Source: Escherichia coli (GTDB lineage: Bacteria > Pseudomonadota > Gammaproteobacteria > Enterobacterales > Enterobacteriaceae). Taken from it: a stretch of DNA of 64,000 bases. The notes beneath the pieces are model-generated. The model was given only the letters and a program-made list of their open reading frames with translations, had not been told where the DNA came from and ran no database searches. This document shows positions 17,894-34,822 of this stretch, one piece after another. The stretch is from NCBI RefSeq assembly GCF_011045215.1, contig NZ_CP049201.1, one strand, 5' to 3'. The position numbers and the translations under genes were made by a program. The number at the start of each line of letters is the position of its first letter. Position 1 is the stretch's first letter.

Positions 17894-18058
17894 CTATAAA
17901 TCATCATGCAATTGTCAAGGGGATGGTGAAAATATTTTTCTTCCCCTAAATTTCTCTCCATTCTTTCCTCATCTAAATTTTCAGTTATCAGCACTCCCTT
18001 CATAGATACAAATCTGTGTGGCTAATATCTCCTTAACGGAAGCGGAGGAGACAGCCAA

Positions 18059-18265: not shown

Positions 18266-18286
18266 TTAAACCTAGGAGAGATTTTT

Positions 18287-18601
18287 ATGAATATCGAAGA
18301 ATTTATGAATGAAGAAAACCATATGTGCAATTTAGGCGAGGATCTTTTTTGCAAGATCTTCGAACCCGGAGCGATTTATGATTTGCCGAATAGCGATTTT
18401 AATAAAGAAATCATTTACTGGCTCAGTCAGTATCTTGTCGGAAATTTGAGACAACCTTTAGACGCGATCTCTGAGCTTGATATTTTCGAGCAGTTTTATG
18501 TTTACGAGACATGGTTCTCGCTAATTAAATGCCCAGATGAAATTAGAAATTTATCGAAACGGATAATTCGATATCAGATTGGGTTAAAAACCATTCTTTG
18601 A
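18287..18601 (+). CDS. Hypothetical protein
   Basis: 104-aa ORF starting 22 nt after alpA. Confidence 0.45.
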   Translation: MNIEEFMNEENHMCNLGEDLFCKIFEPGAIYDLPNSDFNKEIIYWLSQYLVGNLRQPLDAISELDIFEQFYVYETWFSLIKCPDEIRNLSKRIIRYQIGLKTIL

Positions 18602-18732
18602 AAGAACCTATATTTAGTACTATTTTGTAAATTGCATTGTTGAAATGATAGTGCTATTTGCTTTTTGATTTACAAAACATCTTTAACTTCTTTTAAAATA
18701 ATGGGTTAACTATTTTAAGTGAAAAGAAAGGA

Positions 18733-18762
18733 TTATAATATCCCTCTAGAGGGATATTATAA
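18733..18762. promoter_or_regulatory. Perfect 30-bp palindrome upstream of the recombinase trio (candidate operator or recombination core site)
   Basis: ttataatatccctctagagggatattataa is its own reverse complement; lies about 130 bp upstream of the first recombinase gene. Confidence 0.5.
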
Positions 18763-18893
18763 ATTTTCGGCCGGTATGCGTCATTGTAAAAGGGAATAAT
18801 ATTAAATTCAGGAAAATATATTTGTAAATTGCTTATGTTATATGCTTTATTTATTTTCACTGACAATTAAATGTAAATAGAGGCGATATTACT

Positions 18894-20156
18894 TTGAAAT
18901 ATAAAATAAAAAGATTGAAGAATAAAGATGGTATCAGAAGTTGCATTATTATTAATGAGAGCAACGGATTACCCTTGGTTTATTCTAACTTATATATGAG
19001 TGTTATTTCACGAACAAATAGCTATTCATTTTCAACAATGGAAGCAATAGCAAATGCTTTGCTTTTATTTGAAAGATATAATGCTTACATGAATGTGGAT
19101 GTTTTTGATATGGTAAATCCTGACATCGAAAAACTTGTCTCGAACAAAGGATATTTATTCGGGTTAATGAATGCCCTTTCTTACAGAAACGACTTAGAGA
19201 ATGTTACAAGCATTCTTAAAGAACAACATGTCTCTAAAAGAACCCTTTATTTCAAGATAATGACAATTGAAAATTACGTCAAATGGTTTTTTGATAACAT
19301 TGCTATCAATAATATTGATTCTTCTCGTTATGAAGCAATCAGTCGAGCATTTGATTTTATAAAGCCAAGAATAGAGAACGGAAAGAATTACAATATTGAA
19401 AGCGAAAGCAAATCATTGACAAATGAGCAAGTTACAACTTTGACTGATATGGTAAGTGTTAAATCTAAGATTAATCCATTTTCGGAGCATGTAAGGTTTC
19501 GAAATAATCTAATAATTAAAATTTTATTAGAGACAGGTATTAGGGGAGGGGAACTACTTAATATTAAGTTGGTTGATTTTGACTATGTCCACAAAAGTCT
19601 ATGCATAGTAAGAAGGCCAGATGATCAAAACGAACCACGATTAAGGCAACCATTGGTTAAAACTTTAGAAAGAAAAATACCATTGAGTATAGAATTGACT
19701 GAGTTAATACAGAATTATATTAGTGATTTCAGAGGTAAGCAGTGTCATGCAGGGGAGCATGACTATCTGCTTGTTACTCATAGCAGTAAAGGTCAATTAG
19801 GTCATGCATTAACTATTTCAGGTTATCAGAAAATTTTCGAACAAATTAGGAAAAATAGTAATGTTTTGAGCGATATTGTGGGGCATTCGCTAAGACATAC
19901 TTGGAATGTGAAATTCTCAGAAATGATGCTCATGAATTCGAACTCTCAGGAATATATTACTTATGAGAAAGTAAGAAATTATCTTATGGGGTGGAAAAAG
20001 AATAGTACAACCTCAGATATCTATAACCAAGCATTTATAGCACAAGAAAGCCGAAAAATAATGGCTGTTATTAATCCACTCAAAAACATAGTAGAGGACA
20101 AATCCAATGTTTCAAACTCTAAGAAAGCTACAAGAAAGTCAATATTCGGTTTTTGA
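18894..20156 (+). CDS. Tyrosine recombinase-like protein A (first of three tandem genes)
   Basis: 420 aa, probable TTG start; catalytic-domain elements TGIRGGE (Arg box), HSLRHT and a C-terminal Tyr (TSDIY). Confidence 0.75.
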   Translation: MKYKIKRLKNKDGIRSCIIINESNGLPLVYSNLYMSVISRTNSYSFSTMEAIANALLLFERYNAYMNVDVFDMVNPDIEKLVSNKGYLFGLMNALSYRNDLENVTSILKEQHVSKRTLYFKIMTIENYVKWFFDNIAINNIDSSRYEAISRAFDFIKPRIENGKNYNIESESKSLTNEQVTTLTDMVSVKSKINPFSEHVRFRNNLIIKILLETGIRGGELLNIKLVDFDYVHKSLCIVRRPDDQNEPRLRQPLVKTLERKIPLSIELTELIQNYISDFRGKQCHAGEHDYLLVTHSSKGQLGHALTISGYQKIFEQIRKNSNVLSDIVGHSLRHTWNVKFSEMMLMNSNSQEYITYEKVRNYLMGWKKNSTTSDIYNQAFIAQESRKIMAVINPLKNIVEDKSNVSNSKKATRKSIFGF

Positions 20157-21432
20157 AACCAAGGATGGTAATTTCAAAGTGAACTTTTCTTATTCCAAGT
20201 GGAAGATAAGTGAAAGTATAACATTGAACATTGATTCTTTAAGAGTGGTCATCAGTGCATATATACCTATCAAAACCACTTTGGCATATTTCGCTATAAA
20301 TTATAGTGCCAGTTATACTAAGAAAATGTTTTATGCAGTAAAGCATTACATTAAGGCCTGTAATACGAATGATAGCTTGTTTTCTAAAGATTGCATAAAG
20401 TATTACTATAAAGTTGTGAGCTCATTAGATTACACACATGCAGAGACAGTCAAATATTTTTTTATGAAGATGAGTGGTCTTTACCCATCTTTGTTTTCGG
20501 CAGAAGCAATCATATTTTTAGAAAATATTAAAGTTAAAAAAACAAATGCAAACAAGTCTATAAAGACACATGATTATAAAAAAGGTCCCTTTAGTGACTC
20601 GCAATTAAAGGTAATTATAGATTCTGTAGCGATAGCTTATAAGGAAGAAAAGGTAAGTCTGTCAAACTATCTGCTAACCTTCCTTGTTGCATATTCCGGG
20701 CGGCGACCTATGCAAATATCTCAACTTGAAGCTGGTGATCTCTTTGCTTTTAATGGAGAGTACTTTCTCAATATCCCAAGAATTAAACAACGAAATGGAT
20801 ATAGAAAAGAGTTTAGAAAATTACAAATTCCAGAAGAGCTTTTTAGCCAATTGACATATCTCGTTGAAGCTGTGAATTCGCTGGTCAGTGACACATTAAA
20901 AATCGATTTAAGTGAAAAACAAAAGAGAAAACTACCAATTTTTATAAACACATATCCATTCAAAAAAGGATGTGTTGAGCTAAACATGATTGAAAGTGGT
21001 GGATTAAAACTTAACCCCTATGCCATAACACTAAAAATAAGGAACACTATAAATCGTTCAATAAATGAATATCAAGCCTATCTGGGGTGTATAAATTCGC
21101 GCAGATTTAGATATTCATTAGGCACTAAGGTTGCACAATTGGGTTATAGTCCTTCACTGATAGCAAATGTTTTGGACCATTCTTCAATCAATTCTGTTAT
21201 GAGTTATATAGAAAATACAGCGGAAAATGGCAAGAGAATTAATGAAGCTGTAAATGAACTAATGAAGCCACTGGCTAACAAATTTATTGAGGGAAAAGAG
21301 CTTCAGAAAGAGTTAGATTCTTTGAAGCATTTGATAGAAGAATACTGCGGTGGATATAAAACTAACTCTTTTGATAATACAGCAATATCGTTAGTAACTA
21401 ATTCTATCGACGATATGATCAATAGCATTTAA
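20107..21432 (+). CDS. Tyrosine recombinase-like protein B (second of three)
   Basis: 441 aa; AYSGRRPMQISQLE Arg box, box II RRFRYSLGT with Arg in place of the usual first His, and a C-terminal Tyr (VMSYI); GAGGA ribosome-binding site; overlaps gene A by 50 nt. Confidence 0.7.
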   Translation: MFQTLRKLQESQYSVFETKDGNFKVNFSYSKWKISESITLNIDSLRVVISAYIPIKTTLAYFAINYSASYTKKMFYAVKHYIKACNTNDSLFSKDCIKYYYKVVSSLDYTHAETVKYFFMKMSGLYPSLFSAEAIIFLENIKVKKTNANKSIKTHDYKKGPFSDSQLKVIIDSVAIAYKEEKVSLSNYLLTFLVAYSGRRPMQISQLEAGDLFAFNGEYFLNIPRIKQRNGYRKEFRKLQIPEELFSQLTYLVEAVNSLVSDTLKIDLSEKQKRKLPIFINTYPFKKGCVELNMIESGGLKLNPYAITLKIRNTINRSINEYQAYLGCINSRRFRYSLGTKVAQLGYSPSLIANVLDHSSINSVMSYIENTAENGKRINEAVNELMKPLANKFIEGKELQKELDSLKHLIEEYCGGYKTNSFDNTAISLVTNSIDDMINSI

Positions 21433-21444
21433 AAGAAGGATAAA

Positions 21445-23052
21445 GTGATGAAAGAAATCCATGATAAAATGATTAATAACTTCATTATCGCTAATAAGGC
21501 CCATGCGAAAAATTTTGGAAATTTTGAGTGGGATAATTCAAGTTGGGGAGGCGGAATTACATTTTTTAGCGGAATCAAGGTTAGAATGGGGAACAAGAAT
21601 AAGAAATTAATGAATTATAACATTGCAGAGTTCGCAAAAGCATATGTATGGCATGAGTGCTTTCATGATTTATCTGTAGCTTTCAGAGTGCTGAGATTAT
21701 TTAGGATATTAGAAATTGCCATAGGTAAAACAAATAAAGAAGTTAAGATTTCAAGTATAGATCATAAAGTATTAGATGAAGTTATGACTATTGTTCAAGA
21801 AAATTTTGCAATATCCACTTCTTATAAAATATATTTAGATCTTAGGGTATTATGTTCTTTTATGTCTAAGAACGAAATGTTGCCAGAATCCATTACACGA
21901 TGGTCATATCCATTTAAGGCATATGATGCTTACACAAATAGCACAATGGATTCGATGGGAAATTTATCCAATCAGAAAAAACTTCCTGATGAAAAGGCTA
22001 TAGATTTTATTGGTAAAATATTTAGCTCTAATCCAGTTAATGAAAGGGATATATTTACATCTTCTATTTTTGCATTGCTCTTATGTGCTCCATCTCGAAT
22101 TAGTGAAATTATGCTTTTAGAAGAGGACTGTGAAGTTATAGTTGAAGATAGTAATGGCATATCAAGATATGGTTTGCGATTTCTTTCTCTGAAGGGCTTT
22201 GGATACAATACCAAATGGATTCCAGACTGTATGGTTTCTGTAGCTTCAAAGGCTATCATGCGATTGAAAAAACTTACAAGGAATGCAAGGGTTGTTTCTC
22301 GGTTAATAAAAGCAGGGGAAATTAATTTATACGAGTCATTAAACAAAAGTGCGTTTGATTGTTTAACAATTGAAGATCTCCACAAACTTGGCTTTGTTAT
22401 AAATCAATTAAATATCTCCCAAGAAAATCTAAAATTCTTGGCTAAGATAAAACATGGTACAGTCAGTGTAAAAGCATTTTGGATTTATATAGAGCGAAAG
22501 AATGTTAATTCTGAAAATATTAATGCTAATTTATGCTCCATAAATCATAATTTATTGGACTCTATCAAGGGTGCTGATATTTTTACAACAATTAAGGCAT
22601 CTTCAAAGTATTTTAGAGCGGATTTTCGCACCGATAATATGAATAACATATTTCATAGGAATATACATTTTAACTGTGATGGTTCTGTTTTAATTTTCCG
22701 CAGCCATCAAATTAGACATTTACTTAATACTATAGCTCAACGAAGCGTATTGTCAGAGATACAAATTGCCCAATGGTCTGGGAGAAGGAGTGTTAAGCAG
22801 AATTCAGTATATGATCATATGTCTCACAACGAGTTATCAGAACTATCAAGGAAACTATTGAACGGAAACACCTACGAAGAAACAAAAATTTCAGCATCTT
22901 CATTTAATGAACAATCGATTATTATGAATTTGATTAAAGATAAATTTGAAAAACTAGAATTAAAAATCCAAAATTCAGATCCAAGAAAAAGAAAATATAT
23001 TCTGGAAAAAATTAAAGATTTAAGATTGGAAATTGAATACATATTAATGTGA
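21445..23052 (+). CDS. Tyrosine recombinase-like protein C (third of three)
   Basis: 535 aa, GTG start; CAPSRISEI Arg box, HQIRHLL box II and a C-terminal Tyr (NSVYDH). Confidence 0.7.
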   Translation: MMKEIHDKMINNFIIANKAHAKNFGNFEWDNSSWGGGITFFSGIKVRMGNKNKKLMNYNIAEFAKAYVWHECFHDLSVAFRVLRLFRILEIAIGKTNKEVKISSIDHKVLDEVMTIVQENFAISTSYKIYLDLRVLCSFMSKNEMLPESITRWSYPFKAYDAYTNSTMDSMGNLSNQKKLPDEKAIDFIGKIFSSNPVNERDIFTSSIFALLLCAPSRISEIMLLEEDCEVIVEDSNGISRYGLRFLSLKGFGYNTKWIPDCMVSVASKAIMRLKKLTRNARVVSRLIKAGEINLYESLNKSAFDCLTIEDLHKLGFVINQLNISQENLKFLAKIKHGTVSVKAFWIYIERKNVNSENINANLCSINHNLLDSIKGADIFTTIKASSKYFRADFRTDNMNNIFHRNIHFNCDGSVLIFRSHQIRHLLNTIAQRSVLSEIQIAQWSGRRSVKQNSVYDHMSHNELSELSRKLLNGNTYEETKISASSFNEQSIIMNLIKDKFEKLELKIQNSDPRKRKYILEKIKDLRLEIEYILM

Positions 23053-23061
23053 GGAGATTAT

Positions 23062-23460
23062 ATGGCAAGAAAGTTTTATGATAAAGAAATAAAAGCTATT
23101 GTTAAACTTATTGAAACCTGGAGTAAGCCTGATTTCACTTGGGATTCTTTATGCGTGGCTTGCAAAAAAATTTTAGGTAAAGTACCTACACGGCAAGCAT
23201 TAAGCCAGCATAGTGAGATTGTCGTTGCGTATAGGACCAGAAAAAGATCTGGTATGGTTAAACGTCAAAATACGAAGTTACCCGGTAGCCTGAGCCTTGC
23301 GGCGAAAAGAATAGAACGACTTGAAAATGATAATTCGGCACTAAAATATGAAAATAATAATTTACTGCTTATGATTCAAAGAATGCACGAAAATGCTTAC
23401 AGGCATAATATATTGGCTTCTATTCTTGAAGAAGAATTTCCACAGAGAGCAAGAAAATAA
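23062..23460 (+). CDS. Small basic protein with a predicted coiled coil, coupled to the recombinase trio
   Basis: 132-aa ORF starting 9 nt after recombinase C; the C-terminal half (AAKRIERLENDNSALKYENNNLLLMIQRMHENAY) looks coiled-coil. Confidence 0.5.
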   Translation: MARKFYDKEIKAIVKLIETWSKPDFTWDSLCVACKKILGKVPTRQALSQHSEIVVAYRTRKRSGMVKRQNTKLPGSLSLAAKRIERLENDNSALKYENNNLLLMIQRMHENAYRHNILASILEEEFPQRARK

Positions 23461-23545
23461 TATTTTGATAGGTTTTATCTATTGACAGGTGATGTTAATA
23501 TGGTATTTGTAAATATAGTCAGGAAGACAAAACTAACTTGCAAGG

Positions 23546-23983
23546 ATGCAATTTATGGACAAACAACACAATTTTCCAGTGGAAACACTGGAAGAGCAGC
23601 TTATTATTATCGTTGATAAATATATCTCAAAACGGTACCAGCCGGGCGATAAAAGTTTCTCATACCAGCTATACCTGCTTTTTGTTGGCTATCACTTAAA
23701 GTATTTCTACCCCAAAAAACTTTATACTCGCTCTAATCGCAACATAGACAACATTATGACAATGTTTAGTTCTGTATACAAATGTCTTACAAGTACTTTG
23801 TTACAGCGATTAAATAATAAGGAAGCTGTTATCAGGGAGCTAAACTCTCTCGTTAACTATATTGATAACAATCAAGAACGAGCAGAAGAAATCTTTATAG
23901 CTATCAAAACTCAATATGAGATAAAAGCAATAGAGAAAGAACTAACCCATGAAGTCGTTAGAGTAAAAAATGTTAGATTATAA
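23546..23983 (+). CDS. Hypothetical protein
   Basis: 145-aa ORF followed by a terminator hairpin. Confidence 0.45.
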   Translation: MQFMDKQHNFPVETLEEQLIIIVDKYISKRYQPGDKSFSYQLYLLFVGYHLKYFYPKKLYTRSNRNIDNIMTMFSSVYKCLTSTLLQRLNNKEAVIRELNSLVNYIDNNQERAEEIFIAIKTQYEIKAIEKELTHEVVRVKNVRL

Positions 23984-23984
23984 A

Positions 23985-24010
23985 AGCTCCCGAAAGGGAG
24001 CTTCATTTTA
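23985..24010. terminator. Putative bidirectional terminator
   Basis: Stem agctccc/gggagct with a gaaa loop, flanked by A/T runs, between convergent genes. Confidence 0.6.
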
Positions 24011-24023
24011 CTAATTTTCTTTA

Positions 24024-24287
24024 TTAATAACTTCCTACTTGCCAGCCATCATCTGATTTTATTAATTTAACTGTTCCAGCTTGCTTTGTTCCGCTCATAT
24101 CCATAATTATATTGCACTTATAGCTTTTATCAGATTCTTTTGTGCAATCTACTTTTTTTACTGAAGTCAGATAGCTTCCAGTCCATTTTCGCATAGCTTT
24201 AAAAATATCATCTTGGGAAGGCTCACTACTACATGCAGTAAGAAGAAATACGGAAATAATAACAGCAAGGACCGAAGATATTTTCAT
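24024..24287 (-). CDS. Putative lipoprotein
   Basis: 87 aa; signal peptide with lipobox LLTAC. Confidence 0.6.
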   Translation of the reverse strand: MKISSVLAVIISVFLLTACSSEPSQDDIFKAMRKWTGSYLTSVKKVDCTKESDKSYKCNIIMDMSGTKQAGTVKLIKSDDGWQVGSY

Positions 24288-24311
24288 TAGACTTAATCCT
24301 GATTAAGTATG

Positions 24312-24698
24312 TTACTGAAAAATGCCAGATTTTGTATTATTATTATCAGTAGAGAATGTCCATTTGCTGACAATTTCGCCTTTAAAATCTATTTCAAGAG
24401 TTTTGGACTGAGTCTGTGAACCACCAGTTAGTAGCCCAACTACAGGAATGAAAGTCGAGGCATTGAACTGATTGTTATACATAAAATATCTCCATTGCTC
24501 GTTGCCATCATCAAGAGTCGTTCTTGTATCTGGTTCACCTAACTTAGCGAGTAGCTCGTTCTTAGTAGTCTTGTTTTTAATGATCTTTGACTGAAGACTT
24601 TGTGCAGTTTCATTTTCAATTTGTTGGTTCCCGGATGTTGAGCAGCCAGAAATTAAAAATATTGCAATGAAAAAGGCGGTAACAATAGATTTATTCAT
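24312..24698 (-). CDS. Putative lipoprotein
   Basis: 128 aa; signal peptide with lipobox LISGC. Confidence 0.6.
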   Translation of the reverse strand: MNKSIVTAFFIAIFLISGCSTSGNQQIENETAQSLQSKIIKNKTTKNELLAKLGEPDTRTTLDDGNEQWRYFMYNNQFNASTFIPVVGLLTGGSQTQSKTLEIDFKGEIVSKWTFSTDNNNTKSGIFQ

Positions 24699-24727
24699 TC
24701 TATCTTCCTTATTATATTTGGTCAGGG

Positions 24728-25006
24728 TTAACTTTTATGTGTGAAAACGGCTCTGTGGGCAAATTTCTTGCGTAAATAAAATCTTAAAGAAATTGCTGAG
24801 GCAAAATAGATAACGACAGTTAATATAAAACTTTGACTGATAGCGAATATGAAGAAAGCAATTACTAACAGCACAATTCCTATGAGTAAAGCTAACCAGG
24901 CCGAAGGTTCACCATAATTTATTGTTGCGTGACAGCCGATACAGACACGAACTCCGAACGGACTCTCTTTGAAGCAGAACGGGCACTTAATGGTCTCTTT
25001 ACTCAT
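24728..25006 (-). CDS. Zinc-ribbon membrane protein
   Basis: 92 aa; N-terminal CPFC...CIGC four-cysteine motif followed by two hydrophobic helices. Confidence 0.55.
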   Translation of the reverse strand: MSKETIKCPFCFKESPFGVRVCIGCHATINYGEPSAWLALLIGIVLLVIAFFIFAISQSFILTVVIYFASAISLRFYLRKKFAHRAVFTHKS

Positions 25007-25259
25007 ACAAACTCCGTTTATTCAACAGGTTCCTGATACTACAAATTGTTTAAAAATCATCAGGTTCTTTTCAGGGATTCTCGATGAATAATTATCTTTA
25101 GTAAAATCACTTGTACCGATCGATGTTTGAATCATGATAGGTAAAAACTATCATAACTAGATTATCGATCTGTATTAACGATCAATAATTTCTTGACATA
25201 ATATAAATTAGTTACTGTATAGTTAAGAGTGTTTGAGAATAATCAATACAAGTAATTGT

Positions 25260-26405
25260 CTATAAACGAATTTTTATCGCCTTGTTTAAAGGTTTCATTG
25301 CGTAGATATTTGAGAAGGTCGTGTGTGTTTTGTGAAGAATGGTCTTACCAAAGCTTCTCAGAAGCTCGATGTAATGCTTTATGGAAGCAAGCCACTCTAC
25401 GAATCTGAGATGCTTTTGCCGTTGTACTGCATTTTTTTGAAGAATCTTTCCTACGATTTCGTTTCGTTTGTCTTCTCTAAGCCGTAATTCCAGTTCTGCA
25501 ATTTTTTCAACGATACTTTCCTTTCTCTCAGTGGTTTTCAACACTGTTGCAGGAGCAGGAGCAGCAGGTTGGTCTTTTGTCGATATGTCGCTTCGTAGAG
25601 CTTCTAAGTGGTCGGGGTTGTAGTTAAGCCGATTACTGAGATTTGCCCAGGAGTAGCTCTTGCCCAATTGTGAAGCTTTGAAAGCTATGCCTGTGTATTC
25701 GAAAGAGAAGCCGTTCATTTTACCGGTAGAGGCAATATTGGCCTTCCAAGATACTTCAGCTTCTTCCAGCCTCTTGATAAAAGTTAGAAGGTCCGGCTTA
25801 TCAGATAAACTTTTATCAAGTATCTGCTGCAGAGCTTCTCTTGGTGAAAGCACCCCGGTTCGTTCCGATAGCATTTTCTCATTACGGGACACTCTCTTCC
25901 GCTTCGGTTGTGCTTGCGAGGGGGGAGATGCAGTTTTGGTCACTGTCAGGCCATGAGCGATTTCGAGTTTACTGATGATCTGTGTGCTGATGAGGTTTTC
26001 GTTCCTACCCAAGTAGAGCTTCCCACCATTGAGATCTATGCGACTTGCGATAATGTGTATGTGCTGGCCATCGTCGTCATGAAGCACATAGCAACGAAGG
26101 TGAGTATCCCTGAACCCCATCCTCTTCATGTAGTCATCTGCGATAATGGACCACTGTTCATTCGTTAGTGTTTCACCGTCGGGTAAGCGAAGTGAGTTGT
26201 GCCAAACGGGTTTTGCGACATCTAGGCGAAGATGCTTGGTGCTATCGAATTCAGCGATCATTTCAACGGCTGAATCACTTAACATGTTCCCGCCAATGAC
26301 GACTGGATCGCTTTTGTGGTGTGCTCCCGATTGTAATACATAACGAACAACACCAGCGAAGCTCTTACCCCTCTTGATCTTCCGCATACCCTTCACGAGG
26401 GACAC
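25260..26405 (-). CDS. Relaxase (MobA/VirD2-type mobilisation nuclease)
   Basis: 381 aa; three-histidine motif HDDDGQHIHII typical of the relaxase/mobilisation nuclease domain; overlaps the upstream mobC-like gene. Confidence 0.75.
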   Translation of the reverse strand: MSLVKGMRKIKRGKSFAGVVRYVLQSGAHHKSDPVVIGGNMLSDSAVEMIAEFDSTKHLRLDVAKPVWHNSLRLPDGETLTNEQWSIIADDYMKRMGFRDTHLRCYVLHDDDGQHIHIIASRIDLNGGKLYLGRNENLISTQIISKLEIAHGLTVTKTASPPSQAQPKRKRVSRNEKMLSERTGVLSPREALQQILDKSLSDKPDLLTFIKRLEEAEVSWKANIASTGKMNGFSFEYTGIAFKASQLGKSYSWANLSNRLNYNPDHLEALRSDISTKDQPAAPAPATVLKTTERKESIVEKIAELELRLREDKRNEIVGKILQKNAVQRQKHLRFVEWLASIKHYIELLRSFGKTILHKTHTTFSNIYAMKPLNKAIKIRL

Positions 26406-26739
26406 TCCAAAAATCTGTTCTTAACAAGTTGTGACGAAGCTCTTCAAGTTGTCGCTTCACAGCGAAAAGCTCTGTATGAGTAAGCTGGCTATCTTTACTC
26501 TTACTGTCGATATGGAGAGCAATACGATTCAACTTTTGTGATATGTCAGACAATTTTTTCCAGGCTTCAGTATTAATTGTCGGTACTACTGGTGGCAGGT
26601 TTTGCAGAAATGACATGCGGAGCCATTCACCTTTACTTTTATTACCTCGTTTTATATTTAAAATCTGTAATTCATTGTTGTTGAGTCGAACACTTATACA
26701 ATGTATTCTAATTCTGTCATCTAATCTTAATTTAGCCAT
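26365..26739 (-). CDS. MobC-like relaxosome accessory protein
   Basis: 124 aa; KLNRIALHI resembles the MobC N-L-N-Q-I-A-R motif; 41-nt overlap with the relaxase gene. Confidence 0.65.
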   Translation of the reverse strand: MAKLRLDDRIRIHCISVRLNNNELQILNIKRGNKSKGEWLRMSFLQNLPPVVPTINTEAWKKLSDISQKLNRIALHIDSKSKDSQLTHTELFAVKRQLEELRHNLLRTDFWSVPREGYAEDQEG

Positions 26740-26885
26740 ATAAGTTCCTTTTATATGATTTAATATGATTAATGATAGTTATTATTTCCCATTAGTCAAT
26801 AGCAGAACGGTTTTGATATATGGGTTTAATGTGCTAAAAATAAATCTCTCTGAAATAAAGTATTCAAAGATTCCCTAAATTAAAA

Positions 26886-28049
26886 TTAAGGATGATCTAT
26901 TGAAACAAACTTTTGACTAAACTCCAGCCATCTTGCATTATCAACATCCTTCACAAAAGCAATCAGACCTGCGACATGATTGTAAAAGCCAATTGGAGAG
27001 TCAAATTTTTCATGTCTTGCAACTTCTGAGAGACCAAATTTTTTTATTGAGTAAAGGTGGCGTTCAATACGTTTATAAGTTTGTTTAGATAATCGAGGGA
27101 CATTGCCATCAACAAGTAATCCTAAAACTATTTTTTTTGAACCAGGTCCAGCTACTCTTATTTTGCTTACGTTTTCTTTGAAATGGTGCTTACGAATGAT
27201 GCTGATAATGTTATTTTGTATTTTTCCAACCGAAACACCGTCGGGTAGAGTACCACCGCAGGATAATGTTATATCATCAGCATATCGAGTATAAGTGAAG
27301 CCATATTTATTAGCATATTCAGATAGAGAAATATCTAACTTTACAGTGGCTAAATTACTAAGCATTGGGCTACTCGGTGCCCCTTGAGGTAGCACTCCTA
27401 ACGGCCATGGTTCTGATATGTCCCAAAAAAGGCTCTTCTCTTTATTTTGTCCGTAAAGCTTATATTCCTTAGTTGAGTGCTTAGGAACAGAAATTAGAGA
27501 TTGTAAATGTTGTGGTAAACGTATAGTTGTGCATAGCCTTGATAGTTCAAATGCTATTAATGGCCGATATCCAGCATTTTTAAAAACCATATAAACATCA
27601 GATTCATTTATTGAATAAAAGAAATCGGAAATGTCGAATTGGAAGAGCCATTTAGCACCACAATGCTGTTCTGCACATTTTCTGATGCCACCATTAGGAT
27701 GGAAAGCAAAAGAAGTATTATGGGGAACTAACTTTTTTAATATTTCACTATTGATGAAATGCTGTACTTTAAATATCTCGCCAGTTACAGCATGAATATG
27801 GCGTCTTCCACCTGAACGTTTTTTTATAGCAAACATGCGATAATTTGCTGATTCACGGCGGCGTGATACAGTGGATCGTAGCAAGCGATAATCAACACCA
27901 GTAATTTTTGAAAGATGGCGTAATGTAAAAATTACAGGGAGATTATTTTTCTTCAGATTACTTGCATAATTTCTTAAGTTTAGAGCCTGTGTCTTCCCTA
28001 AGGATGACTCTGCATTTTGATAAAGTTGGTGTGCTGACCAGATTTCCAT
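26886..28049 (-). CDS. Reverse transcriptase, retron-type or defence-associated
   Basis: 387 aa; motifs FDISDFFYSI, LPQGAPSSP, catalytic YADD, and a thumb-like KIRVAGPGSKKIVLGLLV; no maturase, endonuclease or other extra domain. Confidence 0.85.
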   Translation of the reverse strand: MEIWSAHQLYQNAESSLGKTQALNLRNYASNLKKNNLPVIFTLRHLSKITGVDYRLLRSTVSRRRESANYRMFAIKKRSGGRRHIHAVTGEIFKVQHFINSEILKKLVPHNTSFAFHPNGGIRKCAEQHCGAKWLFQFDISDFFYSINESDVYMVFKNAGYRPLIAFELSRLCTTIRLPQHLQSLISVPKHSTKEYKLYGQNKEKSLFWDISEPWPLGVLPQGAPSSPMLSNLATVKLDISLSEYANKYGFTYTRYADDITLSCGGTLPDGVSVGKIQNNIISIIRKHHFKENVSKIRVAGPGSKKIVLGLLVDGNVPRLSKQTYKRIERHLYSIKKFGLSEVARHEKFDSPIGFYNHVAGLIAFVKDVDNARWLEFSQKFVSIDHP

Positions 28050-28237
28050 TCACCTATCCTTTGAGCCCAGGGGGCCATCAGTGTCATACATTTTCCGAGT
28101 CCTCGATGGCCGTTAATGTATGACATTGAAGGGCGGCGTAGCCGCCTTTGCGTCAGATCTTTCCAGAGATGTTTCTCCAACATCCCCATCCGTTGTAACA
28201 AAAGCCACAACAGATTCTGTCAAACAAGCGGTGAACT
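28050..28237 (-). ncRNA. Candidate structured non-coding RNA upstream of the reverse transcriptase (possible retron msr-msd)
   Basis: 188-bp intergenic region with an 11-bp perfect stem (28082-28092 with 28115-28125), an interleaved 7-bp stem (28073-28079 with 28105-28111) and a GGCGGC-gta-GCCGCC hairpin (28132-28146). Confidence 0.35.
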
Positions 28238-29458
28238 TCACTCATCATTGTTTAACGGCTGAACGGAGTGCTGATCAGCACACCAAGACTCTGGAATGTA
28301 AAGACCAAAATCCCATACACTATCGTTTTTAACATGCCTAGAATTTACAAGTATGTCAAGTCCGAATTTAGATAATCGTTTTTGAGTTGTCAATAGTCCT
28401 AATGTCTCTGCATATATGAGTAGTTTTTCTACATACGAACAATCAACATTCAAACGTAAGGCAATGCTTTTGTTATCTCTGACACCTCTTTTTATAAGTT
28501 TTAGTAAATTTATAATTTCGGGAGATAAAGATGAATGGGGGGAAGTGTTATGCTTTGTTCCATTTTCTAACAAGGCAAGCAGCCATCCTGGAATTGCTCT
28601 ATCAGGCATTAGTCCTTGCCATTTTTTATTAGAAAACCATAGTATTCCAGGAAGGTTATTAGGGACGCTATGATAAAAAATTATATTAGATAAAACATTA
28701 CCATAGCCAAGACGAGCCCATGGAGGAATTTTGGTTTGATTTTTACAAAGATTGATTATTTCATTATACTGCTCACCCCACCGAGTTTCTAACCAATTTT
28801 CATTATATACGATGTTACTTATGAAATTGATTTTTTCAGATTTTCTATATTTTCTTACTCCATGGTCTGAGCCGCGAATAGTATTGATTATTCTATTTTC
28901 AGAACCTAGTGTTCTGGCGAAAGAAATTAAAGTTAATCTTACTAGTCCTAAACTCCACCAACTTAAAAAGGTAGGGTTATCGAGCATGGCATTAATAAAT
29001 CCGGATACTCTATCACCACTACCAATCGAATCATCAATAAGTAAAAAATCGTTGACTTTAGATTTTTTCAGATCATTGAGTGATGGATGATCTAAAAACA
29101 TAGTTTTATTAGACCGCACAAGGTTTGAAATAATTGAATATACTAAGTCTTCGCTACCTTGCGAATGACCTGGTCTATTAACAACATCACCATTAAGGTC
29201 CCATAATACTTGTTTGTCTGGATCTAATTTGCGAACTGAATAAAGGGCATAATTTTTATTTTTTGGTAAATCAGAAATGCTCTTTTGAAGCCATATGGTA
29301 AACTCATCTCTACTTACAAAAGTTAACTTGCTCAAGATGTTTTTTGCAATCGCTTTTTGGCTGCTATTAAATTGCATAAGCCATTGAGCTATTTCCTGAG
29401 AGGATTCAATTTTTTCTACTGAAAGTATTTTAAATTTAGGTTTGTCTCTTGTTTTCAT
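28238..29458 (-). CDS. Phosphoribosyltransferase-like protein with a C-terminal helix-turn-helix region (candidate effector)
   Basis: 406 aa; PRPP-binding-type motif FLLIDDSIGSGDRVSG in the N-terminal half; HTH-like KSIALRLNVDCSYVEKLLIYAETLGLL near the C-terminus. Confidence 0.65.
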   Translation of the reverse strand: MKTRDKPKFKILSVEKIESSQEIAQWLMQFNSSQKAIAKNILSKLTFVSRDEFTIWLQKSISDLPKNKNYALYSVRKLDPDKQVLWDLNGDVVNRPGHSQGSEDLVYSIISNLVRSNKTMFLDHPSLNDLKKSKVNDFLLIDDSIGSGDRVSGFINAMLDNPTFLSWWSLGLVRLTLISFARTLGSENRIINTIRGSDHGVRKYRKSEKINFISNIVYNENWLETRWGEQYNEIINLCKNQTKIPPWARLGYGNVLSNIIFYHSVPNNLPGILWFSNKKWQGLMPDRAIPGWLLALLENGTKHNTSPHSSLSPEIINLLKLIKRGVRDNKSIALRLNVDCSYVEKLLIYAETLGLLTTQKRLSKFGLDILVNSRHVKNDSVWDFGLYIPESWCADQHSVQPLNNDE

Positions 29459-29693
29459 TTTTTTTAACCACTGTCAGGGCAATTGTTATTTCATAACATA
29501 AAAAGTAATGATGGTAAAGGTTTTGTTGTATCATTAACCTTCTTTATAACTGAGTAGACTAAGTTTAGTACTCTTATACGAAGCTAAATGAGCTAAATAT
29601 TAAATACTAAAATGTAATGGCGGATATTTTTCAACCGAAGGGCGAAAAACAAGGGAACGCAAAGAAGCGGAGCTTCGATGAGTTAGCCCTTGC

Positions 29694-30278
29694 TTATTCA
29701 TATGATTTGTATTTCTTTTCATCTACTAAATTTATTATGGACGATGAGGTTTTATATATCAACTTTACATTGTGTAAAGATATATTGTGTTTGCTAATAA
29801 AATATAAAAGATCCAATAGCATCTGTTCTTGCCGTTCTTGTGGAAACTCTAATTTTACGATTGGAGTAAATTCAACAATAAAACCACTATTCAACAGTAG
29901 TTTTATGTAGCTAAATGAGTTTGGCGTAACTGTTTTGATTTTTATTATTTTATTAGTAATTAGATGCTTATGGTTTATAATAATGTGAGGGTTGAGCAGT
30001 GCCATATCATATGACATGAATGTTAAACCATGACTATCTATTATGTTCAAGTCGATACCAAGTTGTATAAACATATCGATTATTGCTTTGCTATGTATCC
30101 AGTTATAAAATAAAGGTGTCCTTCCATAGTTATCTAAATGATTTAGGTCGGCTCCTGCAGCTAAAAGAGATGTTGTAAGTAAATAGTCATTAGAATAAAA
30201 TAATGGTGTACGACCACAATTATCCTTTAAGTTTATTAAACCATTGTCTATGAATATATTAGATAAATTATTGTGCAT
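29694..30278 (-). CDS. Ankyrin-repeat protein
   Basis: Two GRTPLFY...L..GADLN ankyrin units; start placed at the Met preceded by a perfect AAAGGAGGT ribosome-binding site. Confidence 0.65.
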   Translation of the reverse strand: MHNNLSNIFIDNGLINLKDNCGRTPLFYSNDYLLTTSLLAAGADLNHLDNYGRTPLFYNWIHSKAIIDMFIQLGIDLNIIDSHGLTFMSYDMALLNPHIIINHKHLITNKIIKIKTVTPNSFSYIKLLLNSGFIVEFTPIVKLEFPQERQEQMLLDLLYFISKHNISLHNVKLIYKTSSSIINLVDEKKYKSYE

Positions 30279-30339
30279 TTTACCTCCTTTTATCATTATG
30301 TATATTAAAAAAAGGAGGTTGTCAATATTTAGAGGTTAG

Positions 30340-30588
30340 TTAACCACCAAATGTTTTTTTCTTAGGTTGTGGGGGCTCTGCATTAAGTATGATAGTTTTA
30401 ATATTTGCATTTATTTGATTGATATTATCAGTCAATATATTAATAACTGATAATGCTTCTACAGGTGTGCTAAATGATGATTCTAAAAACACGCCTGAGC
30501 CTTTCAAAAATATATGGTAAGTGAGTATGCCATTTTCTTCATTTTCATATATATCATAAAGTTCATTTACTGTTTCGTACAATTTCAT
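30340..30588 (-). CDS. Hypothetical protein
   Basis: 82-aa ORF in the same minus-strand gene string. Confidence 0.4.
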   Translation of the reverse strand: MKLYETVNELYDIYENEENGILTYHIFLKGSGVFLESSFSTPVEALSVINILTDNINQINANIKTIILNAEPPQPKKKTFGG

Positions 30589-30643
30589 TATTATACTCCT
30601 TGATAATGATGGTTTATTTCAATGGGCTCGCGATATCACTACC

Positions 30644-31519
30644 TTATAAATGATCTCCAATGTGAGCAATAGCGATTTGTGCCGGTCTATCAGGAATTCT
30701 ATTAAAGAAGCCAAAGTATATTCTATTGTAGTAATAAGTTCCTTTTCGATTAGTATTGTCCATGTATTCAAGTTTATAATGGAATTCACAATTCACGTCT
30801 TTATAGATACAATCACCCACTTTAAAATCACGTTTTAATTCCCCTATGGCTCGTTTATTTTTGCCTCCACCTTCTGGTGTTACAAGATAAGGTAACGATG
30901 AATTCATAATTCTAATGTTATGTTGTGAGTCATTAGGTATAATTGTATAGTTATTAACAAAATAAAGAAATTCAGTGATGCTTTTCAAAAAATTTTCATA
31001 TCCACCTTCAATTTTCCTAATAAAATTAAAGGTTTGTGGTGGGTTATCCAAAAAAATGACATTCTTGAAAATGTTTTTAATATTGTCAGCATATTCATCA
31101 CAATCCGATGGGAATTCATCAAGGATTTTCTTAGAAAGATCAATTATTTCACTTTCACTAGAAACTGTATTATCCTTTTTTAAAGGTATGTCTGGAGATT
31201 GATAGGCACAGAGTTTTCTTTCGGCAAGTATCGATGGGGATGTATTGATGATATTTAGAAGTTCATTGCAGCCTATTTCATCCAATAAACTAATTTGGCC
31301 TATTTTATAATACTCATTAACAAGGCCACCGTAATCAGGGTTTGTTGAAAATAATTTAGTGACAAATTTTCCATCAAATTCATTGGAGCGAAGAAACTTT
31401 ATAAAATCTGAATCCACTCTCTCTACAAGTGCTTTAAGATCTTTAATCTGGTTAAAAATCTTAATTTGTTCTTCTTCAAGAGAAAAACTATCTATGAACA
31501 AGCAAACACCTGCTTTCAT
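30644..31519 (-). CDS. Hypothetical protein (third gene of the DUF262-ATPase operon)
   Basis: 291-aa ORF starting 9 nt after the ATPase stop; no confident motif. Confidence 0.55.
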   Translation of the reverse strand: MKAGVCLFIDSFSLEEEQIKIFNQIKDLKALVERVDSDFIKFLRSNEFDGKFVTKLFSTNPDYGGLVNEYYKIGQISLLDEIGCNELLNIINTSPSILAERKLCAYQSPDIPLKKDNTVSSESEIIDLSKKILDEFPSDCDEYADNIKNIFKNVIFLDNPPQTFNFIRKIEGGYENFLKSITEFLYFVNNYTIIPNDSQHNIRIMNSSLPYLVTPEGGGKNKRAIGELKRDFKVGDCIYKDVNCEFHYKLEYMDNTNRKGTYYYNRIYFGFFNRIPDRPAQIAIAHIGDHL

Positions 31520-31528
31520 GAAATCCCC

Positions 31529-32680
31529 TTAATTTTCAATATCAGGAGTATTAAATGATCCTGTCATAATGGTATACATATCAATTGATTGCTGGTCAAA
31601 GAATCCTTTCGGCCAACTAGAAAGTTTTCCATCTTTGCCAATAGATATCTTTTCTGCAGTAGATTCATTATTCTCATGTGAAATATAAAATAACGAAATT
31701 AGCTCAGGTGAAAAGTCAGGAGATGTTCTTGCTACGACACGGATTCCGTTGAGAAGGTGATCGCTATGAGTTTCTATGAATACCTGTACTCCCGCTTGAG
31801 CAGTGTAAGCTATTAATCTACCCATATAGCTTTGTCCTCTAGGGTGCAAATGGGCTTCCGGGTTTTCTAAAACTACTAATTCGCCCGGTTTTGCTAAAAG
31901 TAATGCTGAAACAATACTCAAAGCATAGCTATAACCAAAACCAATGTTTTTGGGTTTAGTTTGTTTTCCTGACTCAGCCTGTATTGTGTTATAAGCAATG
32001 TTTGCACTAACTTCCAATTTTGGCTGTATTTTATAATTTGGGGATATTTCATCCATCCATGCCTGTATATTATTCGCAACCCTTACATTATTATAATTAT
32101 GATGTATTCTTGGGTCGTCTTTATTTGGATTACCATCTTTCAGTATTAGTCTATCTTGCCTATTCATTATATTGTCTAATACTTCGATGACATATTCACC
32201 TTTTTTCCCCAACCAATCGCTATGAAAATTGTGTTGTGATAAAGAAATATTGTCTCTTGGACCAATACGTTCGGCTTCAATATATTGAAAATTACTTGCA
32301 TGTATAAAGTTTTTAATTGTTTTAATGCTATCCATACCTGAAATACATGGAAGTTCATTACGAAGATTTGCTGAGTCCTCTTGTGTAACCCCCCAACTGA
32401 CTTCACATTCTTTAACTGAAAGAGTGATTTTCAGTTGATCATCATCTGAAATAAAGTCATTAATAATATCGTCAATACGACCAATGTTTATCAGTTCACC
32501 ATTTAACTTTATATCATTTTTACTACTAAAATCAGACTGTAACACCATACCTATGGCTTGCATTACTGTACTCTTACCGACAGAGTTATTACCACAAAAT
32601 ACATTTAGACCTGACAAATCAAAAGATTGCTCTTTGTATGATTTAAAATTTTTGAGTTTTATCGATTTAATAGGGAGCAT
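31529..32680 (-). CDS. ABC-type (AAA_21-like) ATPase
   Basis: Walker A GNNSVGKST near the N-terminus; LENPEAHLHP Walker B/D-loop region and ETHSDHLL H-loop near the C-terminus; ATG sits 3 nt after the upstream gene's stop, with a GAGGG ribosome-binding site. Confidence 0.75.
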   Translation of the reverse strand: MLPIKSIKLKNFKSYKEQSFDLSGLNVFCGNNSVGKSTVMQAIGMVLQSDFSSKNDIKLNGELINIGRIDDIINDFISDDDQLKITLSVKECEVSWGVTQEDSANLRNELPCISGMDSIKTIKNFIHASNFQYIEAERIGPRDNISLSQHNFHSDWLGKKGEYVIEVLDNIMNRQDRLILKDGNPNKDDPRIHHNYNNVRVANNIQAWMDEISPNYKIQPKLEVSANIAYNTIQAESGKQTKPKNIGFGYSYALSIVSALLLAKPGELVVLENPEAHLHPRGQSYMGRLIAYTAQAGVQVFIETHSDHLLNGIRVVARTSPDFSPELISLFYISHENNESTAEKISIGKDGKLSSWPKGFFDQQSIDMYTIMTGSFNTPDIEN

Positions 32681-32682
32681 TA

Positions 32683-34599
32683 TCAATTACCCTCATTAGC
32701 ATTAACAATCTTAATGCCTGTGCTTTGTTCAAGAATTTTCGCAAAAGAATTGAATCTATATAATATAGTTATTTTCTTTCCTGTTGAGGTAGAGATAGAG
32801 TCCTTAAACCCTCGCTCTGCTTCAATGTAAGTCTGTGAATCCCATGTGGCATATTCTTTTGAATTGCTATCAATAGCAGAATAAAGGGTATCAACCAATT
32901 TATCAGAATTTTTCAGCAATAACTCTTCTTGTTCCTCAGTAACATAATAGAAATAGTAAATTATCACTTCATAAAGTTGCTTACTTATAGGTGATGTATT
33001 AGAGCCAATCTCTTTTATGAAAGCTAAATCACCGAAAACATCATAGGCGAGGTTTAAAGCCCTCAAATATTTTCTTTCTATTTGAAGATACTCGTTGCAT
33101 TCATTCGAAATGTACGCACTTCCTAAATCTATTTCTTTTTCGTTTAATAAGTTTAATTTATATAGATTTAAGTTTTCCATGGCTTTTGATAAAAACTTAT
33201 CATAGGAATTAAAATTATAATTTTTAAAGCCAATATTTATAAATGCAAGAGCAGCAAGGCAAAGCTCCATATCCTTTTGTCTATCAGGCTTAACCTTACC
33301 ATGCGTTGCTTGTTTGAATTCGTTTTTGGATGCCAGATACCGTAAAAACTTAACACTTGAACCTTGATTCAGGGCCGAACGAATTTCTTGATCACTTAAC
33401 TTAACACCATATGTATTGATACGGTGGAATAATTCAACTATGAGATCAGTGCTATCTTTATTCATTTCTATAAAGTAAGCCGTGATTTCATATTCTCTTA
33501 TGGCTCTTTGTTCAGTGCGAGTAAGCTCACCAAACTCTTTACCATTTAAATCCTCAAGGATATCAAGTTTAGAAAGTTTAAATTCTCCACTCATAAAATC
33601 ATAAATTGTTGTGATCCGTTGTAAACCATCAACAACGACCCACTTATCTTCTGCGATTCGATTACCAAAATAAAATACAGGAAGTGGGAGTTTTAAGAGA
33701 ATAGACTCGATTAATTTAGACTTCTTCTCATTATTCCAAATACGATCTTTTCTTTGGAAGTCAGGTTGTAGTTCAATATCACCAAAATGAACCCGATCAA
33801 AAATGAGAGATAAAACCGGAGTCTTGGAGGTAATTCTTGCAACACCAAGTTTAGCTTGTAGAGTTTTTAATTCCAAGTTCAACTGTGATGATGTTGTATC
33901 ATTTTCACCCTCATCTACTCCATAAGTATTGGGTGACTCTATAAGTTCTTCTACAGTAGTATTATTACTAATTTTTAATGTTGGCACCTCTATATTATAA
34001 TCAAGAGTCACAACTGAGTTAGCCATATCTGCGGAAAGCTCTTTAAATCTATTAAGAGTAACCTCAACCATTTTTGAAGCAATTTCAGATGGGAATTTCT
34101 TCAAAACTATTTGATAAGCATCATCAAGGCTTTGAACTAATTCAACCTGCTGTTCATAAATTTTCCCAAGATTCAAATTGAGAAAATTATCAATTTTTTT
34201 TCTTAAAACCCTAAATTCAGAGCCTTGAACTTCTGATAATGTCGCTGCTTCATGGACATTATGACTACGCAATAACAGGTGTTTTTTGTTTTCATACTTG
34301 AAATGTTGAATATAGGGTAAGTTAGCAAATATTGTTTCTGGTTGGTTCCTGCTCGAAGAACTACCGTAAAGAACCTGCTCTACATTACAAAAACCTCTAA
34401 TATTTAAATTGCTGTAAATCGATTCAAGCTCTGATAATGAACGTGTTTTAGATTCAGAATTAGAAGAGACTTTATATTTACCGTTTTCACGATCAATGCT
34501 TATAATACATAGTGGAGGCGTAGAAGGATTAATTGGCTGTAGCTGTTTGCCAAAAAGAAGATTTTCGATGTCGTTTAGCACTTGTTCAAAGTTAAGCAT
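32683..34599 (-). CDS. DUF262 (ParB-like nuclease fold) domain protein
   Basis: 638 aa; central QPDFQRKDRIWNNEK...VVDGLQRITTI matches the DUF262 IPxFQR and DGQQR signatures. Confidence 0.7.
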   Translation of the reverse strand: MLNFEQVLNDIENLLFGKQLQPINPSTPPLCIISIDRENGKYKVSSNSESKTRSLSELESIYSNLNIRGFCNVEQVLYGSSSSRNQPETIFANLPYIQHFKYENKKHLLLRSHNVHEAATLSEVQGSEFRVLRKKIDNFLNLNLGKIYEQQVELVQSLDDAYQIVLKKFPSEIASKMVEVTLNRFKELSADMANSVVTLDYNIEVPTLKISNNTTVEELIESPNTYGVDEGENDTTSSQLNLELKTLQAKLGVARITSKTPVLSLIFDRVHFGDIELQPDFQRKDRIWNNEKKSKLIESILLKLPLPVFYFGNRIAEDKWVVVDGLQRITTIYDFMSGEFKLSKLDILEDLNGKEFGELTRTEQRAIREYEITAYFIEMNKDSTDLIVELFHRINTYGVKLSDQEIRSALNQGSSVKFLRYLASKNEFKQATHGKVKPDRQKDMELCLAALAFINIGFKNYNFNSYDKFLSKAMENLNLYKLNLLNEKEIDLGSAYISNECNEYLQIERKYLRALNLAYDVFGDLAFIKEIGSNTSPISKQLYEVIIYYFYYVTEEQEELLLKNSDKLVDTLYSAIDSNSKEYATWDSQTYIEAERGFKDSISTSTGKKITILYRFNSFAKILEQSTGIKIVNANEGN

Positions 34600-34799: not shown

Positions 34800-34822
34800 G
34801 TTCGAGTCCGGCCTTCGCACCA
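34800..34822 (+). repeat. Direct repeat of the leuX 3' end (attR-like island boundary)
   Basis: gttcgagtccggccttcgcacca matches tRNA positions 13244-13267 with one missing G. Confidence 0.8.

Follow-up and report, generated by a model that had tools for sequence, protein, structure and literature searches.

A candidate origin of transfer upstream of a retron and a mobC-relaxase pair in an Escherichia coli leuX island

Within a 64,000-nucleotide stretch of Escherichia coli DNA (contig NZ_CP049201.1 of assembly GCF_011045215.1; hereafter the window, meaning this whole stretch), a relaxase gene and a mobC-like accessory gene lie side by side on the minus strand, which raises the question of where the origin of transfer (oriT) on which their products would act is to be found. 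A first-pass annotation, made from the letters alone, had pointed to short tandem repeats in the 146-bp region upstream of mobC as a possible oriT or promoter, and had proposed that the surrounding island could be mobilized by a co-resident conjugative element. The reading that we favor, and consider probable though well short of certain, is that the window carries an integrative mobilizable element in leuX, that mobC and the relaxase gene form an operon, that the oriT is a hairpin-bearing block farther upstream rather than the 146-bp spacer, and that a retron has been inserted between this block and the operon. The block, which we call element A (29627..29695), provides a concrete 70-bp oriT candidate. 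The loci compared were 37 from species representatives plus two E. coli loci; individual loci are referred to by L numbers where they need to be told apart.

The mobC-relaxase pair and the adjacent spacer

The relaxase gene (25260..26405, minus strand; 381 aa) was recognized from a Pfam match, from conserved residues, and from the predicted fold of its product. Against Pfam PF03432, the MobA/VirD2-like nuclease, the protein scores 84.2 bits (cut-off 24.6; E 1.3e-23), with residues 22-153 covering profile positions 1-132 of 132, i.e., the full length of the model. The histidine triad described by the first-pass annotation was borne out: H109, H115, and H117 lie within LHDDDGQHIHII at residues 108-119, fit the pattern HxDx(3-4)HxH, and are invariant in 23 aligned homologues of 36-81% identity, as are Y22 and the motif WHNSLRLP (H69, S71). 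Y22 also supplies the N-terminal catalytic Tyr whose absence had been named beforehand as a refutation of the earlier proposal. The NCBIfam TraI_MobP alignment places residue 9 of the relaxase onto profile position 8, which brings Y22 into register with Tyr22 of RP4 TraI. Among the NCBIfam models, TraI_MobP_relax is matched at E 3.3e-18, the RP4 TraI/MobA(P) equivalog NF041893 gives 65.9 bits against a cut-off of 250, and Bacteroides MobB models also match, all of them scoring far under their equivalog cut-offs. An AlphaFold (AF2) model of the protein, with pLDDT values of 84-94 across residues 20-150, retrieved R1162 MobA (2NS6) as its top PDB match (probability 0.99, E 7.5e-3, TM 0.45), and MobM (4LVM) was listed too. 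From these comparisons, the product is predicted to be a MobA/VirD2-type HUH nuclease that is MOBP-like, and a relative of RP4 TraI standing outside that equivalog.

The relaxase is laid out as an HUH nuclease domain, a variable Pro-Ala linker, and a conserved second domain (residues ~220-255). Three in-frame candidate start codons fall within its first 7 codons, and the gene overlaps the 3' end of mobC. Among homologues, the Pro-Ala/Pro-Val repeat linker ranges from a few to ~40 residues (alignment columns 300-400), and a GCAGGA micro-repeat at 25549-25564 falls inside this linker in the window.

For the accessory gene (26365..26739, minus strand; 124 aa), which overlaps the relaxase gene, the MobC-like identity proposed by the first-pass annotation stands by homology and position, but the protein passes no Pfam threshold of its own. 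It scores 16.7 bits against the NikA-like model (cut-off 27), gives no match to the Pfam MobC model, and retrieved nothing usable in a PDB sequence search. The MobC assignment holds only because the protein is homologous to MobC of the IncQ-3 plasmid pGNB2 (39% over 74 aa, E 1e-17), which passes both models (NikA-like, 40.6 bits against 27; MobC, 24.5 against 23.2). The pairing of mobC with the relaxase gene was detected in all but one of 40 related loci, the exception being L037, and a ribbon-helix-helix fold of the NikA/MobC type is predicted for the accessory protein.

Between mobC and the next gene lies the 146-bp spacer (26740-26885). The short tandem repeats on which the earlier proposal of an oriT was based are present (26749-26770; period 10, 2.2 copies), but they are no better than chance: their Tandem Repeats Finder (TRF) score is 37, where the usual threshold is 50, and 126 of 2000 random 146-mers of matched dinucleotide composition (24% G+C) scored at least as high (p ~0.06). 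The island, here taken as 25 kb, contains 10 TRF arrays scoring at least 30. The spacer has no excess structure, folding with z of +0.4 and +0.2 for the two strands relative to shuffles, and a blastn-short search with the 300 nt 5' of mobC found a single match among the related loci, L002, an ssrA-integrated E. coli island that carries the same retron as the window. What the spacer does contain is the top sigma-70 match of a 3.6-kb scan, TTGACT-16-TATCAT (10/12; 26772..26799, read from 26799 to 26772 on the minus strand), located directly 5' of the repeat and predicted to be the promoter of mobC and the relaxase gene; a TTGAC(A/G/T) hexamer also occurs ~50-95 nt 5' of the mobC ATG in most related loci examined. 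A 14-bp near-palindrome, TATCATTAATCATA, overlaps the -10 hexamer of this promoter. The repeats and the near-palindrome (26749..26777, minus strand) are confined to the lineage of the window and L002, and together they are probably the 5' leader or operator of the mobC promoter.

Because the repeat is at chance level, structure is lacking, the best sigma-70 match of the region lies here, and only L002 matches, the spacer is most likely the 3' flank of the reverse transcriptase (RT) gene of the retron followed by the mobC promoter and leader, so that the promoter half of the first-pass proposal fits and the oriT half does not. An oriT in this spacer, with the AT-rich repeats acting as relaxosome binding sites, would agree with a large-survey rule by which an oriT usually lies in the intergenic DNA nearest to the relaxase operon on its upstream side (bioRxiv 10.64898/2026.01.13.699239), and the weak repeat and near-palindrome could be counted in its favor. 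Besides the results just given, however, the distal half of the spacer belongs to the RT gene's 3' flank, and the ancestral upstream region, with element A, persists 2.9 kb away, and we consider an oriT in the spacer very improbable.

Element A and its plasmid relatives

When the island was scanned for conserved non-coding blocks against loci whose relaxase is at most 62% identical, only three blocks were found: A (29627-29698), B (25104-25190), and C (23465-23564). Element A is the top oriT candidate among them on the basis of its conservation, its covarying hairpin, its plasmid relatives, and a core resembling that of IncQ-3 plasmids. On the minus strand, it comprises hairpin 1 (29695 to 29650), a T run (29649 to 29645), a small hairpin, CGCCCTTCGGTTG (29644 to 29632), and an A run (29631 to 29627), with the exact core AAGCAAGGGCTAAC at 29682-29695. 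The order on the mob-sense strand across loci is AAGCAAGGGCTAAC, a variable stem-loop-stem, GTTnCCTTGCTT, the T run, the small hairpin (CGCCCTTCGGTTG or variants), and the A run. Element A stands upstream of mobC, on the same strand, in 35 of the 36 Enterobacterales loci that hold the corresponding DNA; 22 loci have it 176-207 nt from mobC, and the other 13, among them the window (2956 nt), have it 1.1-3.75 kb away. In its long hairpin, 84.7% of cells are paired, compared with 29-56% in slid controls, and the 25 compensatory cells were equalled in 0 of 500 shuffles. These counts were taken from a hand-written structure, as RNAalifold run on a MAFFT alignment missed the long hairpin because of indels in the alignment. 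Folded as DNA, the window copy gives z of -3.7 and -2.8.

In the 22 loci with the short distance, which we call basal, ~60 A-rich bases come after element A, and then a TTGACA promoter, an operator formed by an inverted repeat, a ribosome-binding site, and mobC itself, with no cargo between A and the mobC promoter. In the window, the conserved sequence stops directly after the small hairpin of A, and the interval is filled by a retron cassette (26886..29458, minus strand). The cassette encodes a PRTase-wHTH protein (28238-29458, minus strand; PADLOC PRTase_III-A, 2e-93; Pfam PRTase-CE and wHTH) and an RT (26886-28049, minus strand; PADLOC RT_III-A, 5.6e-160; Pfam RVT_1), separated by a G+C-rich spacer of 188 nt (28050-28237, minus strand) that folds far better than its shuffles (RNA fold z -6.3) and is likely the msr-msd RNA. 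An Rfam scan of 24500-29700 returned chance-level miRNA/snoRNA matches only, and the retron spacer was assigned no family. On gene content, the cassette is predicted to be a type III-A retron consisting of an RT, a PRTase-wHTH effector, and a structured non-coding RNA, and judging from the basal arrangement, its insertion has parted A from the mobC promoter, displacing A by 2.9 kb. The instructive feature of the locus would thus be a defense cassette that split a candidate oriT from its operon.

Homology between the window, integrated at leuX, and L002, integrated at ssrA, starts at 29695, the first base of A; identity is 96-100% across the retron, the spacer, and the initial 250 nt of mobC, and 74-93% beyond. 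The resulting mosaic block of 3.2 kb ends inside mobC at one side, and its other edge coincides with the putative nick site discussed below. More generally, the interval between A and the mobC promoter holds differing cargo of 1-3.5 kb in 13 of 35 loci, being occupied in the window (26886-29626) and in L003-L005, L007-L009, L011-L014, and L016. The cargo is a type III-A retron in the window and L002, Tin plus an insertion sequence (IS) in L016, PDC-M68A/B in L011 and L013, a 900-aa P-loop protein in L014, and unknown AT-rich open reading frames (ORFs) in the others. One could propose that the short stretch separating the oriT hairpin from the mobC promoter is a dedicated slot for small defense cassettes in these islands, a suggestion that we put forward tentatively and rather doubt. 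If it were true, the coincidence of one slot edge with the putative nick site would suggest that cargo is swapped by relaxase- or transfer-linked recombination, and rule-based surveys would misplace the oriT in about one-third of these islands.

Plasmid-borne relatives of the relaxase, found by protein search, are 41-50% identical to it and were typed as MOBP where MOB-suite typed them. An A-like core with a hairpin was found upstream of mobC in pGNB2, pWES-1, two Pseudomonas plasmids, a Komagataeibacter plasmid, and a Paracoccus contig (L036). The core reads GCAAGGTGTAAC or GCCAGGGCTAAC, and it lies 90-125 nt from mobC in the plasmids and ~520 nt from it in the Paracoccus contig. A blastn search of element A against plasmids gave no match; the likeness emerged on reading the mobC upstream regions of the relatives that the protein search had found. 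Elements B and C and the OxyR-type box are absent from the five plasmid relatives and L036, and element A is the only one of the three conserved blocks that also accompanies plasmid-borne relaxase relatives. The core is located 3' of the promoter in plasmids, whereas in islands it is located 5' of the promoter; a shared role as an RNA leader is therefore unlikely, which argues for a function at the DNA level.

Three records labeled 'non-mobilizable' by PLSDB/MOB-suite, OX345050.1 (L001), NZ_CP118679.1 (L045), and NZ_CP077984.1 (L046), each carry the gene for this relaxase and mobC, and the latter two, which are Pseudomonas plasmids, also bear the A-like element. Such labels on relaxase-bearing records represent a blind spot of mobility typing.

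The core also has a counterpart in the literature. A putative oriT core, 5'-TTACACCTTGCT-3', is shared by 29 IncQ-3 plasmids (PMC7557826). It corresponds to the core in pGNB2 read as its reverse complement, and GTTAGCCCTTGCTT on the plus strand of the window (29682-29695) is identical to it at 10 of 12 positions. Some IncQ-3 relatives proved transferable by biparental and triparental mating, with pRK2013 as helper. A literature search for the 12-mer retrieved only unrelated primer sequences. The strand and position of the motif are the same in the five plasmid relatives and L036, and across islands and plasmids its plus-strand version appears by eye to be better conserved than the opposite arm. 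In the oriT regions of RP4, R64, and R1162, an inverted repeat is followed after 8 nt by the nick. Because of this geometry and the better conservation of the plus-strand motif, we would place the nick region at 29682..29695 on the plus strand, with a putative nick between GTTAGCCCTTG and CTT, i.e., between 29692 and 29693, 8 nt 3' of the inner inverted repeat.

Elements B and C and the case for a mobilizable island

Element B (25104-25190), a 61-bp imperfect palindrome just 3' of the relaxase stop codon, was the first hypothesis for the oriT, and was dropped after a match upstream of f17A was found and the layout of the phage P22 gtr switch was then recognized. It is the most widely conserved of the non-coding blocks, being present in 33 of 33 loci and always ~60-180 nt from the relaxase stop. 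It comprises a pair of GATC sites spaced by 13 nt, a box at its center, ATAGtTtttAcCTAT (25137-25151), and another GATC lying 49 nt away from the second, with GATT occupying the position of a would-be fourth. The GATC sites at 25118-25121, 25167-25170, and 25180-25183 are kept in 32, 33, and 33 of the 33 loci, respectively. The gtr region in the P22 record has the same layout, with a GATC pair at 13-nt spacing, ATAGnTnnnAnCTAT as the central box, and a second GATC, and Broadbent et al. showed it to be an OxyR/Dam phase-variation switch (PMC2909390). A blastn search of element B against phages gave spurious 25-nt matches only. After B, a conserved promoter-like hexamer pair reads into three small membrane/lipoprotein genes (25006 to 24024), which B probably controls.

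On IncF plasmids, e.g., pVir68, a B-like block (75-77% over 72 nt) lies 140-210 nt upstream of f17A, with no relaxase gene nearby. The block with three GATC sites and TGATAG-N7-CTATCA was seen in pVir68 (L041; 4985-5075), pUTAK-5-1, and seven other IncF plasmids, and by analogy, F17 fimbrial expression may be phase-variable through the same OxyR/Dam mechanism. An oriT in element B could appeal to its palindromic form and to its constant presence next to the relaxase gene, but given the layout of a phage switch with its GATC sites retained, the f17A context, and the absence of B from the plasmid relatives, we regard this as the least plausible place for an oriT.

Element C (23465-23564), conserved in 18 other loci, can be read on either strand. 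On the plus strand, its box is identical to the P22 OxyR(B) half-site at 18 of 19 positions and abuts a TTGACA -35 hexamer, and the leader that follows has a pair of GGA-loop hairpins, one being the Shine-Dalgarno sequence of the ORF starting at 23555 (judged by eye). These GGA-loop hairpins resemble CsrA sites. The minus strand matters for a different reason, as ATCCTG is the MOBP nick core of RP4, R64, and the T-DNA borders, and most copies of C contain ATCCTG with a small palindrome before it. An oriT in element C, nicked on the minus strand at GTC(A/T)TCCTG just before AC, would leave A, with its shape of a hairpin plus T run, as merely a terminator insulating the mob operon from upstream cargo. 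However, C is missing from the five plasmid relatives and L036, all of which retain the A-like core, its distance to the relaxase gene varies from 1 to 7 kb, and the core in the clade of the window is CTTCCTG. The plus strand, moreover, makes a coherent unit of OxyR half-site, -35 hexamer, and leader with Shine-Dalgarno sequence, and a plain terminator is not expected to hold ~88% identity while the proteins drop to 45%. We therefore judge an oriT in C, with A as a terminator, to be improbable.

The integrative mobilizable island itself spans 13244..34817 (21.5 kb). Its insertion point is the tRNA-Leu(CAA) gene, leuX, inside which the island begins, and 18-bp direct repeats, GTTCGAGTCCGGCCTTCG, are found at 13244-13261 (within tRNA-Leu CAA) and at 34800-34817. 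The flanking DNA is the E. coli yjgR-lptFG-ahr-leuX region (97.9% identity), and G+C content is 31-40% in the island compared with ~53% outside. The integrase is of the P4 type, with the domains Arm-DNA-bind_3, Phage_int_M, and Phage_integrase. No type IV coupling protein (T4CP) or type IV secretion system (T4SS) families were detected in the island ORFs scanned with Pfam and PADLOC, in which ORFs of <100 aa were covered in part. Because the integrase, att repeats, and relaxase are there and coupling-protein and secretion genes were not found, the gene content marks the island as an integrative mobilizable element of the relaxase-encoding kind, and the earlier suggestion that it could be mobilized in trans looks sound.

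Enterobacterales chromosomes harbor a very large family of these relaxases, with >3000 database proteins, and relatives of the module occur in Klebsiella, Salmonella, Enterobacter, Pectobacterium, Yersinia, and Pantoea. The mob module was found in 130 of 5426 complete E. coli genomes, at 141 places that are all chromosomal, with none on an E. coli plasmid. The same island backbone occurs at different attachment sites (leuX, ssrA) in many genera, which implies ongoing horizontal spread. Literature searches on this island family, using DUF6387 and related term combinations, retrieved no description of it. The fact that the E. coli modules are all chromosomal, that the literature searched reports no transfer of this family, and that a retron parts A from the operon would also suit a mob module that is a relic, i.e., one with intact genes in which the oriT is dead or the island is never transferred and the conserved elements serve transcription control only. 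With both ORFs intact, the catalytic residues invariant in the 23 aligned sequences, homologues this numerous in many genera, the backbone at both leuX and ssrA, and element A under sequence-level constraint, we find a relic unlikely.

Several points nevertheless weigh against element A as the oriT of this relaxase. The island copies of A also resemble an intrinsic terminator, with a G+C-rich hairpin and a T run (judged by eye), and 2.9 kb of retron now parts A from the operon. The relaxase scores under every NCBIfam equivalog cut-off, and PDB sequence searches with the relaxase and with a 23-sequence profile returned no usable relative. Element C contains, on its other strand, the classical IncP/IncI nick core ATCCTG, for which the clade of the window reads CTTCCTG. 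Finally, the IncQ-3 core is itself only 'putative', having been named by homology, and because the two arms are near-symmetrical, the sequence cannot decide which strand is nicked.

Taking element A as the cognate oriT, a long inverted repeat with a conserved tail, we would envisage mobilization as follows. The mobC and relaxase genes would be expressed as a two-gene operon from the sigma-70 promoter within the 146-bp spacer, with the repeats in its leader or operator. The island would be excised by the P4-type integrase, MobC would bind near A, and the relaxase would nick one strand, in the window the plus strand at GTTAGCCCTTG before CTT, and remain bound to the DNA via Tyr22. The relaxase-DNA complex would then leave the cell by way of a coupling protein and pore supplied by a co-resident conjugative element, the ankyrin/NsnABC side leading and the retron, mobC, and relaxase genes entering the recipient last. 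The genes, their motifs, the conservation, the hairpin, and the retron insertion are shown by the sequences; where the nick falls, which end leads, what acts as helper, and that the island transfers at all are inferred here. Such a route would account for the possible spread of a leuX defense island, with its type II restriction-modification, retron, and NsnABC systems, among Enterobacterales.

The remaining content of the island was assigned with Pfam and PADLOC. Three defense systems make up its cargo: a type II restriction-modification pair (14795-16946, plus strand), the type III-A retron, and NsnABC (30644-34599, minus strand). Further genes are those for a DUF6387 protein, an ankyrin-repeat protein, small envelope proteins, the mob pair, and a recombinase block. 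The latter comprises three successive ORFs at 18894-23052 (plus strand), two with Phage_integrase domains and a third of 535 aa with an HQIRH...Y motif (by eye). Throughout the whole family, this recombinase-in-trio-like block keeps its synteny with the mob pair, and the window block is only 26-38% identical to copies from islands whose relaxase is 76-80% identical. Past attR (34818-38000), ~3 kb of low-G+C DNA contains two ORFs without a family match and is possibly the remnant of a second tandem island.

Comparison with known systems

EARL/ROD21-like islands (ICEKp258.2) resemble the island of the window in being enterobacterial and tRNA-linked and in carrying a P4-type integrase, DUF6387, and a relaxase (PMC10763509). 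They were considered as the parent family in view of the shared DUF6387 and were rejected, as they have TraD, a 506-aa MOBQ relaxase, and type IV pilus genes, whereas the island described here has a MobC-MOBP-like pair and a three-recombinase block.

Relaxase-encoding integrative mobilizable elements, or 'iMOB', are already known (Guedon et al. 2017, PMC5704250; Ares-Arroyo et al. 2026 preprint), with a reported mean size of 23 kb and with defense genes that cluster near the oriT. The island of the window is similar in size (21.5 kb) and combines an integrase, att repeats, and a relaxase without mating-pore genes. It differs in that the first-upstream-intergenic rule would pick the wrong DNA in this lineage. 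The 'nearest upstream spacer' rule, which the first-pass annotation also followed, would fail here because cargo appears to have been inserted between the oriT candidate and the operon, and this is a caveat for automated oriT and mobility typing wherever cargo sits beside the operon.

The N-terminal Tyr, an HxS-type motif II, the HxDx3-4HxH pattern, and a ribbon-helix-helix accessory gene directly upstream of the relaxase gene are shared with the IncP (RP4 TraJ-TraI) and IncI (R64 NikA-NikB) systems. In those plasmids, the inverted repeat is followed by the nick region and then by the promoter and operon, and the operon is transferred last. Unlike in these systems, the relaxase of the window scores 65.9 bits where the TraI cut-off is 250, the proposed nick core is CCCTTG before C where theirs is ATCCTG before C, and the island has neither a T4CP nor a T4SS among the ORFs scanned.

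The IncQ-3 plasmids of the pGNB2 family (mobC plus mobA/repB; MOBP by MOB-suite) have the same gene order, with mobC overlapping the relaxase gene. The N-terminal 250 aa of the relaxase are 42-43% identical and MobC is 39% identical, and a hairpin with the core AGCAAGG-nn-TAA, which includes the published putative oriT 12-mer, lies upstream of mobC. In contrast to the IncQ-3 plasmids, the relaxase of the window is a 381-aa protein without a primase fusion, encoded by an integrated island and not by a replicon, the element stands before the promoter in islands and after it in plasmids, and here the retron creates a 2.9-kb gap. The mob pair of the leuX island is distantly related to the modules of both IncQ-3 and IncP plasmids.

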